Notes: generated by a model not told the origin, from the sequence alone. Shown: positions 19,890 to 21,017, counted from the first letter of the stretch. The stretch is DNA of 25,008 nucleotides from an uncultured Armatimonadia bacterium (GCA_964542355.1 CAZIWQ010000005.1:1-25008); one strand, 5' to 3'. Translations and numbers: made by a program.

Positions 19890-21017
19890 ATGCAGAAAAT
19901 GACATTCTACCCCCTCGGCAATGCCGACTGCTGCTGTATCGACACTGAGAGCGGCAGGAAGATCCTCTTCGACTACGCGGCAGTCCTGGACCCAGACGAC
20001 CGCTCGGATCGTCGGTGTGATCTACCGGCCAGGCTGCGCGAGGATCTGGATGCATCGAACCGAGACTACTACGACGTGGTTGCCTTCAGTCATCTCGACC
20101 GGGACCACTTCGCTGGCTTTTCCGATCTCTTCCACCTGGACCACGCGCAGAAGTACCAGAGCAAGGATCGCGTCAAGATCCAGGTGATGTGGGTTCCTGC
20201 AGCTCTAATCACAGAACTCGGCCCCGATGATGCCGAGGGAAAGATCCTCCAGCGAGAAGCACGCTACCGCTTCAAGCAGGGGAAGGGCATCCGTGTGTTC
20301 TCCCGCCCCGAACGTCTAGAGCAATGGTGCAACGCGAACGGTGTGGAGCTCAAAGCACGGCGTCACCTGGTCACGGATGCTGGACAGGTAGCCCCCGAGT
20401 TCTCGCGAGCATCAGACGGCCTGGAGTTCTTCGTTCACTCACCTCTTGCGGTGCGCCAGAACGAGAGCGAGGTAGAGGACCGCAACAGCGATTCCATCGT
20501 CATGCACATTACCTTTGATGTGGCGGGGGTGCTGACGAAGGCGCTGCTGCTGTCCGACTGCGGCTATGAGGCCCTCGGTGATATCGTGACGGTCACGGTC
20601 AACAAGAAGCGCCAGGTTCGCCTGGCGTGGGATATCGCCAAACTCCCCCACCACTGTAGCTATCTCGCCCTGAACTCGGAGCGAGGCACGGACAAGACGA
20701 AAGCGACACGGGAAGTAGCTATGTTGTACGAGGAGTGTGGGAGCAACGGCGCGGTGATGGTCTCTACAAGCGCCCCCATTCCGGCTAGGGGGGCAGAAGA
20801 CGACAATGATCAGCCGCCCCACCGTCAGGCCGCAGCATACTACCAGGGGGTAGCTGGGAAGCTCAATGGGCAGTTCGCCGTGACAATGGAGCACCCGAAG
20901 AAGAGCAGTCCGGAGCCGCTGATCATCGAGATCGGCAAGACCGGGGCGACGCTCAAGAAGGAAGCCGTGACAGCAACAGTTGGGGCCACTTCGCGCTCGG
21001 CCCCTCGGGCAGGATAG
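19890..21017 (+). CDS. Metallo-beta-lactamase-fold (ComEC-like) hydrolase with C-terminal Gly tail
   Basis: FYPLGNADC, ILFDY, FSHLDRDH metal motif, LLLSD, KLPHHCS; ends ...TVGATSRSAPRAG; GGAGG RBS. Confidence 0.88.
   Translation: MQKMTFYPLGNADCCCIDTESGRKILFDYAAVLDPDDRSDRRCDLPARLREDLDASNRDYYDVVAFSHLDRDHFAGFSDLFHLDHAQKYQSKDRVKIQVMWVPAALITELGPDDAEGKILQREARYRFKQGKGIRVFSRPERLEQWCNANGVELKARRHLVTDAGQVAPEFSRASDGLEFFVHSPLAVRQNESEVEDRNSDSIVMHITFDVAGVLTKALLLSDCGYEALGDIVTVTVNKKRQVRLAWDIAKLPHHCSYLALNSERGTDKTKATREVAMLYEECGSNGAVMVSTSAPIPARGAEDDNDQPPHRQAAAYYQGVAGKLNGQFAVTMEHPKKSSPEPLIIEIGKTGATLKKEAVTATVGATSRSAPRAG

Follow-up and report, generated by a model that had tools for sequence, protein, structure and literature searches.

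Iyer, Burroughs and Aravind (2006) described an operon type, '6a', in which a triple-module E2-E1-JAB protein is almost always encoded beside a metallo-β-lactamase (MBL)-fold protein and which has 'usually two genes'. We analyzed a 25,008-nucleotide stretch of DNA from an uncultured Armatimonadia bacterium (GCA_964542355.1, CAZIWQ010000005.1:1-25008; hereafter the window, with positions counted from its first letter), which carries an operon of an MBL gene, an E2-E1-JAB fusion gene and a membrane protein gene. Judged by this architecture, a 6A-MBL anti-phage operon is the best explanation of the locus. The MBL protein ends in a flexible tail closed by a near-invariant Pro-Arg-Ala-Gly (PRAG), and we consider, with a probability of roughly 75%, that this tail is the substrate of the E1 domain and that the MBL enzyme itself is the modifier, a reading based on sequence conservation and on analogy with known conjugation systems. 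The system was reportedly named 6A-MBL and tested in Pseudomonas aeruginosa in work of van den Berg and colleagues from 2024.

The window shares with the described systems a specialized MBL gene followed by a single E2-E1-JAB polypeptide, a defence-island or mobile context and Cap-type regulators, but its clade adds a conserved third gene, for a protein with four transmembrane (TM) segments, to the usual two. 6A-MBL has been cited as a defence against phages confirmed by experiment in P. aeruginosa, and it is listed among jumbo-phage defences. A preprint from the Corbett laboratory (Ye et al. 2024) states that MBL pathways, in the manner of type II CBASS (an antiphage signaling system based on cyclic oligonucleotides) and of Pycsar, conjugate their enzyme through fused E2-E1, and terms the MBL a 'signaling enzyme'. 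Conjugation as an idea has been in print before, and among members of this named system the locus is intact and ordinary. An experimental demonstration of MBL conjugation was not found in the literature searched, which did not take in van den Berg et al. 2024. What may go beyond print is how strongly, in numbers, the xPRAG end is conserved, along with the precursor-like extensions, the replacement of the tail by an AGS-C domain and the effector-like third gene.

In type II CBASS, Cap2 binds and adenylates the CD-NTase at its conserved, disordered C-terminus, which it passes via E1 C548 and E2 C109 to targets, and Cap3 reverses the conjugation. The CD-NTase of E. cloacae, CdnD, ends in KTGRFA. 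That of V. cholerae, DncV, has a terminal Gly, and mutating it abolishes defence. The locus in the window shares a Cap2-homologous E1, cysteines (C113 and C537) at positions comparable to C109 and C548 of Cap2, a disordered tail on the putative substrate enzyme with a conserved small-residue end, and a JAB peptidase as the likely reversing enzyme. The patatin and TM genes in third position resemble CBASS effectors. The first-pass annotation of the window, made from its sequence, had drawn the analogy with the Cap2 substrate, and it holds for the disordered tail and for the Arg at position −2, which is found in ubiquitin (LRGG) and in E. cloacae CdnD (GRFA) as well. On the other hand, a CD-NTase (SMODS) is absent from the operon and an MBL-fold hydrolase takes its place, the JAB domain is fused to E2-E1 whereas Cap3 is separate, neither a cyclic-nucleotide synthase nor a known receptor domain was detected here, and many versions lack the third gene.

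The likeness to ubiquitin and to Atg8 and Atg12 (with Atg7-type E1 and Atg3/Atg10-type E2) covers the C-terminal Gly and the Arg at −2, extension-bearing precursors that need a peptidase, an enzyme set for adenylation, thioester formation and transfer, and a JAMM deconjugase. However, the modifier here would be a 42-kDa MBL α-β/β-α sandwich and not a β-grasp protein, and there is no E3. The Bil and Bub systems likewise combine bacterial E1, E2 and JAB proteins in defence islands, some under CapK/CapS. They encode a dedicated ubiquitin-like protein (Ubl) and keep E1 apart from E2, with the oxyester chemistry of Bub relying on a serine, whereas the window has no Ubl and retains both catalytic cysteines. 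The operon is not a member of CBASS, having no CD-NTase, and its MBL is not a β-grasp Ubl, though the system would work like both.

The MBL enzyme and its C-terminal tail

The MBL open reading frame (ORF; 19890-21017, + strand) encodes a 375-residue phosphodiesterase- or nuclease-like enzyme of the MBL fold, the predicted conjugated protein. Since a Pfam scan of the protein gave no match, the fold was set by AlphaFold2 (AF2) and Foldseek. The AF2 model has a pLDDT of 85.8 and a pTM of 0.86. Its best Foldseek match is the β-lactamase-like domain of ComEC (9ic4, E 4.6e-13), followed by the phosphorylcholine esterase Pce (2bib/1wra, E 1.6e-12) and then by RNase J/Z, CPSF-73 and true β-lactamases, and a profile built from MBL homologues also weakly matches the ComEC domain. 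The metal motif is of the ComEC type HxDxDH (H68, D70, D72 and H73) and aligns to HPDADH of ComEC, while PHHCS (H254 and H255) aligns to PHHGS, and H183, D223, H254-H255 and H311 are invariant in the alignment of homologues. PADLOC gave weak matches of the protein to the MBL parts of the defence systems RTasMBL, LmuA and Avs1a. The model indicates that the MBL fold is genuine despite the missing Pfam match, and fold and motifs point to a phosphodiesterase or nuclease of the ComEC/Pce type. While ComEC and Pce are the best structural matches, identity is 18% and TM-scores are about 0.5-0.65, the MBL gene does not stand in the context of a membrane channel, and only the family in the window has the ubiquitin-like tail.

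The protein ends in ...KKEAVTATVGATSRSAPRAG (last residues SRSAPRAG). As the first-pass annotation had noted, this end is a low-complexity tail with a terminal Gly. Residues 359-375 (AVTATVGATSRSAPRAG; 20964-21014, + strand) form an A/T/S/G-rich, variable linker with pLDDT below 50 in the AF2 model, suggesting that the tail is flexible or disordered. The terminal Pro-Arg-Ala-Gly (21003-21014, + strand) is where the E1 is predicted to adenylate the protein, on the carboxylate of Gly375. The codon of Gly375 is GGA (21012-21014), and the TAG stop (21015-21017) follows with no codon between.

The first-pass annotation had staked the proposal of a conjugated MBL on the conservation of the terminal Gly among homologues, and this Gly is conserved far beyond chance in the sequences compared. 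Each of the 120 close homologues (58-68% identity) has PRAG, as the exact end of the protein in 94 and followed by 2-10 further residues in 26. In an alignment of 32 of the close homologues, P372, R373, A374 and G375 are invariant, while columns 355-371 contain no invariant position. An exhaustive search of 1.84 billion cluster representatives gave 707 MBL relatives, and a Gly is aligned to G375 in 49 of the 50 (33-60% identity) that are aligned as far as the C-terminus. Distant homologues show the end variants PRVG, PRFG, PRMG, RHG and KAG, with or without short extensions. The versions on Klebsiella and E. coli plasmids, at an identity of only 25%, nevertheless carry AAPRAG followed by VINQ (as in Klebsiella) or VSNQ, and the homologue on Gluconobacter pGOX1 carries APRAG followed by RWR.

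Since the residues of PRAG stay fixed while all synonymous codons occur, selection at this site is on the amino acids and not on the DNA, as judged from 77 distinct genes drawn from 80 metagenome loci and other loci. Gly is present in all 77 (GGT, GGA, GGG and GGC are all used), Arg in 76 with all six codons in use, Pro in 75 with all four, and the penultimate residue is Ala in 72, with four codons, and Val in 5. These counts bear on the alternative that PRAG is a by-product of nucleotide constraint, in which GCA GGA TAG would hold the Shine-Dalgarno sequence AGGA and coupling signals for the next gene. In the window, AGGA does precede the ATG at 21022 by 8 nt, with 4 bp between the two genes. 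However, relative to the Gly codon, the start of the downstream gene ranges from overlapping to about +32 nt, and PRAG is kept with the next gene 2-14 nt away, overlapping, or 1-18 codons further on. On the codon evidence we reject ribosome binding or translational coupling as the cause of PRAG conservation, and we give nucleotide constraint almost no weight.

About a third of the homologues have 1-18 extra residues past the Gly (26/120 close homologues, 28/77 genes in the codon analysis and about 21/50 representatives), of which PRAG|VINQ and PRAG|RWR are examples; the copy in the window has no such extension. At one locus (L025, 527-1660), APQAG stands in place of APRAG with an 18-residue read-through extension, and this may be a decaying or divergent copy.

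Genomic coupling of the tail to the E2-E1-JAB protein

The second gene (21022-23277, + strand) encodes a 751-residue triple-module protein that resembles a fusion of Cap2 and Cap3. Pfam places Prok-E2_A at 52-160 (63 bits), ThiF at 358-457 (39 bits) and Prok-JAB at 606-726 (40 bits), many PADLOC CBASS models named 'E1-E2' and 'JAB' match the protein, and its E1 region aligns to the adenylation domain in the Cap2 structures 7tsq, 7tsx and 7to3 (E ~1e-11). Homologues align from the ATG at 21022, which we took as the start, although the ORF could extend back to a TTG at 20980. Among 24 sequences of 44-57% identity, the predicted catalytic residues are intact: Cys113 of the E2 domain (YPRSICLYEE; 21358-21360, + strand) and Cys537 of the E1 domain (RYGQSCRD; 22630-22632, + strand) are invariant, as are G363, G365, G368, D387 and R398 of the predicted adenylation site (G363-x-G365-x-x-G368; 22108-22215, + strand). 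In the putative JAB/JAMM center (22888-23124, + strand), E623, H687, H689 (H687-x-H689) and D701 are invariant and S698 nearly so.

The ATG lies 4 bp (gttc, 21018-21021) after the MBL stop, in agreement with the spacing given by the first-pass annotation, and the third gene overlaps the end of the E2-E1-JAB gene by 8 bp. The ORF listing contains no further + strand ORF of at least 60 residues in the operon, so that the packed genes leave no room for a separate ubiquitin-like gene. The absence of a β-grasp gene from the operon, from which the first-pass annotation had argued, is thus borne out. The same absence would suit an E1 that uses an endogenous β-grasp carrier (ThiS/MoaD) or a Ubl encoded elsewhere, with another role for the MBL tail, and Iyer et al. 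(2006) proposed 'an endogenous ThiS/MoaD protein' for mobile operons that lack a Ubl of their own. In CBASS, the sister 6b operon, however, this idea has been overturned, since the CD-NTase is the substrate there. An endogenous carrier also leaves unexplained the invariant disordered xPRxG end, its occurrence with the E1, and its loss in relatives without an E1 neighbor. In each of the 62 distinct loci that offer 700 nt or more of downstream sequence, a homologue of the E2-E1-JAB protein directly follows the MBL gene, and the pair is also annotated in Gluconobacter and C. perfringens and on plasmids of K. pneumoniae and E. coli. The tail-less MBL relatives P0143, P0162, P0170 and P0210 have a Pfam AGS_C domain at the position of the tail, beginning near residue 353-381 (E 1e-19 to 1e-40). 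At the loci of two tail-less relatives examined, P0143 (with AGS_C) and P0164 (660 residues, no AGS_C), there is no E1, E2 or JAB neighbor. We regard a carrier encoded elsewhere as quite improbable.

At the two P0143 loci (L094, 2504-4027; L095, 3885-5408), the flanking genes encode proteins of 245 and 345 residues without a Pfam family. Natural fusions of MBL and E2-E1-JAB were considered as a proxy for docking of the tail and rejected, as the C-terminal extension of P0282 (888 residues) is junk and P0179 has the look of a deletion chimera.

From the directly established anatomy, conservation, co-occurrence and intact catalytic residues, we infer the chemical steps, the target and the effect of conjugation of the MBL as follows. 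By analogy with Cap2 and the CD-NTase, the E1 domain would bind the tail and adenylate the carboxylate of Gly375 with ATP. The acyl group would move as a thioester to Cys537 of the E1 domain and then to Cys113 of the E2 domain, and the MBL would be transferred to a target amine, either a Lys sidechain or an N-terminus. The host or phage proteins that the first-pass annotation named as targets are a guess. The JAMM/JAB domain would hydrolyze the MBL conjugates. In homologues with 1-18 codons past the Gly, it would first have to trim the precursor to expose the Gly, as happens with ubiquitin and BilA precursors; the MBL in the window stops at Gly and would therefore need no trimming. Conjugation would most likely prime, activate or localize the MBL phosphodiesterase or nuclease.

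The extensions bear on a further alternative, in which the tail serves for binding to E1/JAB or as part of a pro-enzyme and the MBL is not transferred to third-party proteins, whether through regulation by JAB cleavage alone, conjugation directed at the enzymes themselves (chains of MBL, or MBL joined to E2-E1-JAB), or C-terminal thiocarboxylation of the kind seen in sulfur carriers. Proteolytic maturation must occur in the lineages with extensions, and Cap2 in vitro conjugates the CD-NTase to Cap2 itself and to other CD-NTase molecules. But two-thirds of the genes, including that in the window, end on the Gly itself and call for no processing, the invariant E2 cysteine would be superfluous for maturation or sulfur transfer, and no sulfur-metabolism genes lie near the operon. 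This alternative seems to us unlikely, with a chance of its own all the same.

Conjugation of the MBL itself, as the first-pass annotation proposed, is supported comparatively by the selection on amino acids, the co-occurrence with E1, the extensions, the tail-less relatives as controls, and the intact catalytic residues. Two observations weigh against it. The C. perfringens homologues end in ...KTYGK, and the motif is looser at long range. A 42-kDa enzyme is also an unusual modifier, though the CD-NTase sets a precedent. If the tail is conjugated, 6A-MBL would join the CD-NTase of type II CBASS as the second case of a whole enzyme attached to other proteins by ubiquitin-type chemistry in bacteria, and the 'enzyme-as-ubiquitin' would be a general design in immunity and not an oddity of CBASS. 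The MBL family is large and widespread, with its 707 cluster representatives and with homologues on 277 plasmid records, many from Klebsiella, E. coli and Clostridium perfringens. A search of 50,697 phage genomes gave no homologue of the MBL. With a near-invariant xPRAG end, trypsin would leave an Ala-Gly remnant (+128.06 Da) on modified lysines, allowing targets to be mapped.

The third gene and the role of the MBL

The conserved third gene (23270-24028, + strand) encodes a 252-residue, all-helical membrane protein with about four TM segments, a candidate effector by hydropathy, AF2 model and synteny. The hydropathy profile shows 2+2 TM segments, and the AF2 model is all helical with a pLDDT of 88. 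The protein gave no Pfam or PADLOC match and no significant fold match in the PDB (best E 0.28, MotA/bestrophin-like), and only 145 homologues were found. Most of the close loci have this gene in the same place. Patatin-like phospholipases take this position on pGOX1 (L010) and in L064, L048, L086 and L076, and the third gene is absent in many versions, including the two-gene operons on enterobacterial and clostridial plasmids. No nucleotide-sensing domain was detected in the third-gene products. The alternation between a 4-TM protein here and patatin elsewhere suggests modular effectors like those of CBASS.

The third protein in the window also ends in Gly and was considered as a substrate of the E1. 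It was rejected, as its C-terminus is not conserved, with a Gly end in 13 of 120 homologues.

In the two-gene versions, the MBL is the only candidate effector. Since the third gene swaps between 4-TM and patatin proteins and the tail-less relatives carry AGS-C, the MBL may instead occupy the slot of the CD-NTase, as a sensor or as an enzyme that generates or processes a signal, primed by conjugation and controlling interchangeable membrane-attacking effectors, rather than being simply a nuclease effector. The AGS-C sensor domain is otherwise found on CD-NTases and nucleotide cyclases. This assignment, drawn by analogy, agrees with the term of Ye et al. for the MBL, and we offer it tentatively, as somewhat doubtful. 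If true, an MBL-fold enzyme without a known product would be the basis of a second-messenger or activation pathway.

In two loci (L005, 9080-9772; L008, 8974-9804), a fourth gene follows the TM gene and has weak Lactamase_B matches (E 8e-4 and 3e-3). It may encode a second, small MBL-fold protein, and no gene of this type is present in the window.

Regulators and genomic setting

Upstream of the operon, a gene for a 303-residue CapK-like GHKL kinase (18260-19171, + strand; Pfam HATPase_c, 27.5 bits) directly precedes a gene for a 183-residue homologue of the STAS-wHTH transcriptional repressor CapS (19197-19748, + strand). No solved structural relative of the kinase was found. The CapS homologue matches E. 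roggenkampii CapS (PDB 9Z71; phmmer E 6.8e-36), and the stretch TD[AS]SFPRES with its phospho-serine aligns in it, the residue in the window being Ser58 by our count. CapK and CapS are a DNA-damage-responsive regulator pair, and seven MBL operons with capKS have been described (Chambers et al. 2026). The gene order capK-capS-operon in the window agrees with the arrangement in that study, and predicted control of the operon by CapK/CapS is the best explanation. The intergenic stretch from capS to the MBL gene (19749-19889) contains no clear CapS operator palindrome, only weak candidates such as CTTCA(N14)TGAAG at 19768-19791. A second palindrome with CTTCA...TGAAG arms lies at 19623-19661, within the 3' end of capS (CTTCAGCTGAATGC/GCAATAAGCTGAAG). 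The two are possible CapS operators, like the published ones only in concept.

The capK-capS pair is also found upstream of the MBL genes in L065/L066 and L080. Other 6A-MBL loci have other regulators: an HTH_3 and Peptidase_M78 fusion or pair, similar to CapH/CapP, or a WYL protein similar to CapW (L008, 3471-4736; L009, 3751-4619; L012/L013, 3995-4857). Comparison of the gene contents shows regulators that appear to swap around a constant 6A-MBL core.

The operon stands in a defence island, and a mobile-element or plasmid-like setting is shown by a tyrosine integrase (24105-24902, − strand), a ParA-like ATPase (4904-5752) and two Rep-O-like proteins (3481-4725, − strand; 6229-7488, + strand) encoded in the window. 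Genes of the mobile-element or plasmid type span 2145-7488 and 24105-24902. The window has a GC content of 64.4% and no terminal overlap that would indicate circularity. Between the plasmid-type genes and capK lies a complete Hma system on the + strand, with HmaA at 7617-11126, HmaB at 11298-14156 and HmaC at 15323-18121 (PADLOC, 1144-1748 bits). Two small genes (14208-14813 and 14810-15316) lie between HmaB and HmaC, and the second matches the PADLOC candidate PDC-M05B (E 6e-39).

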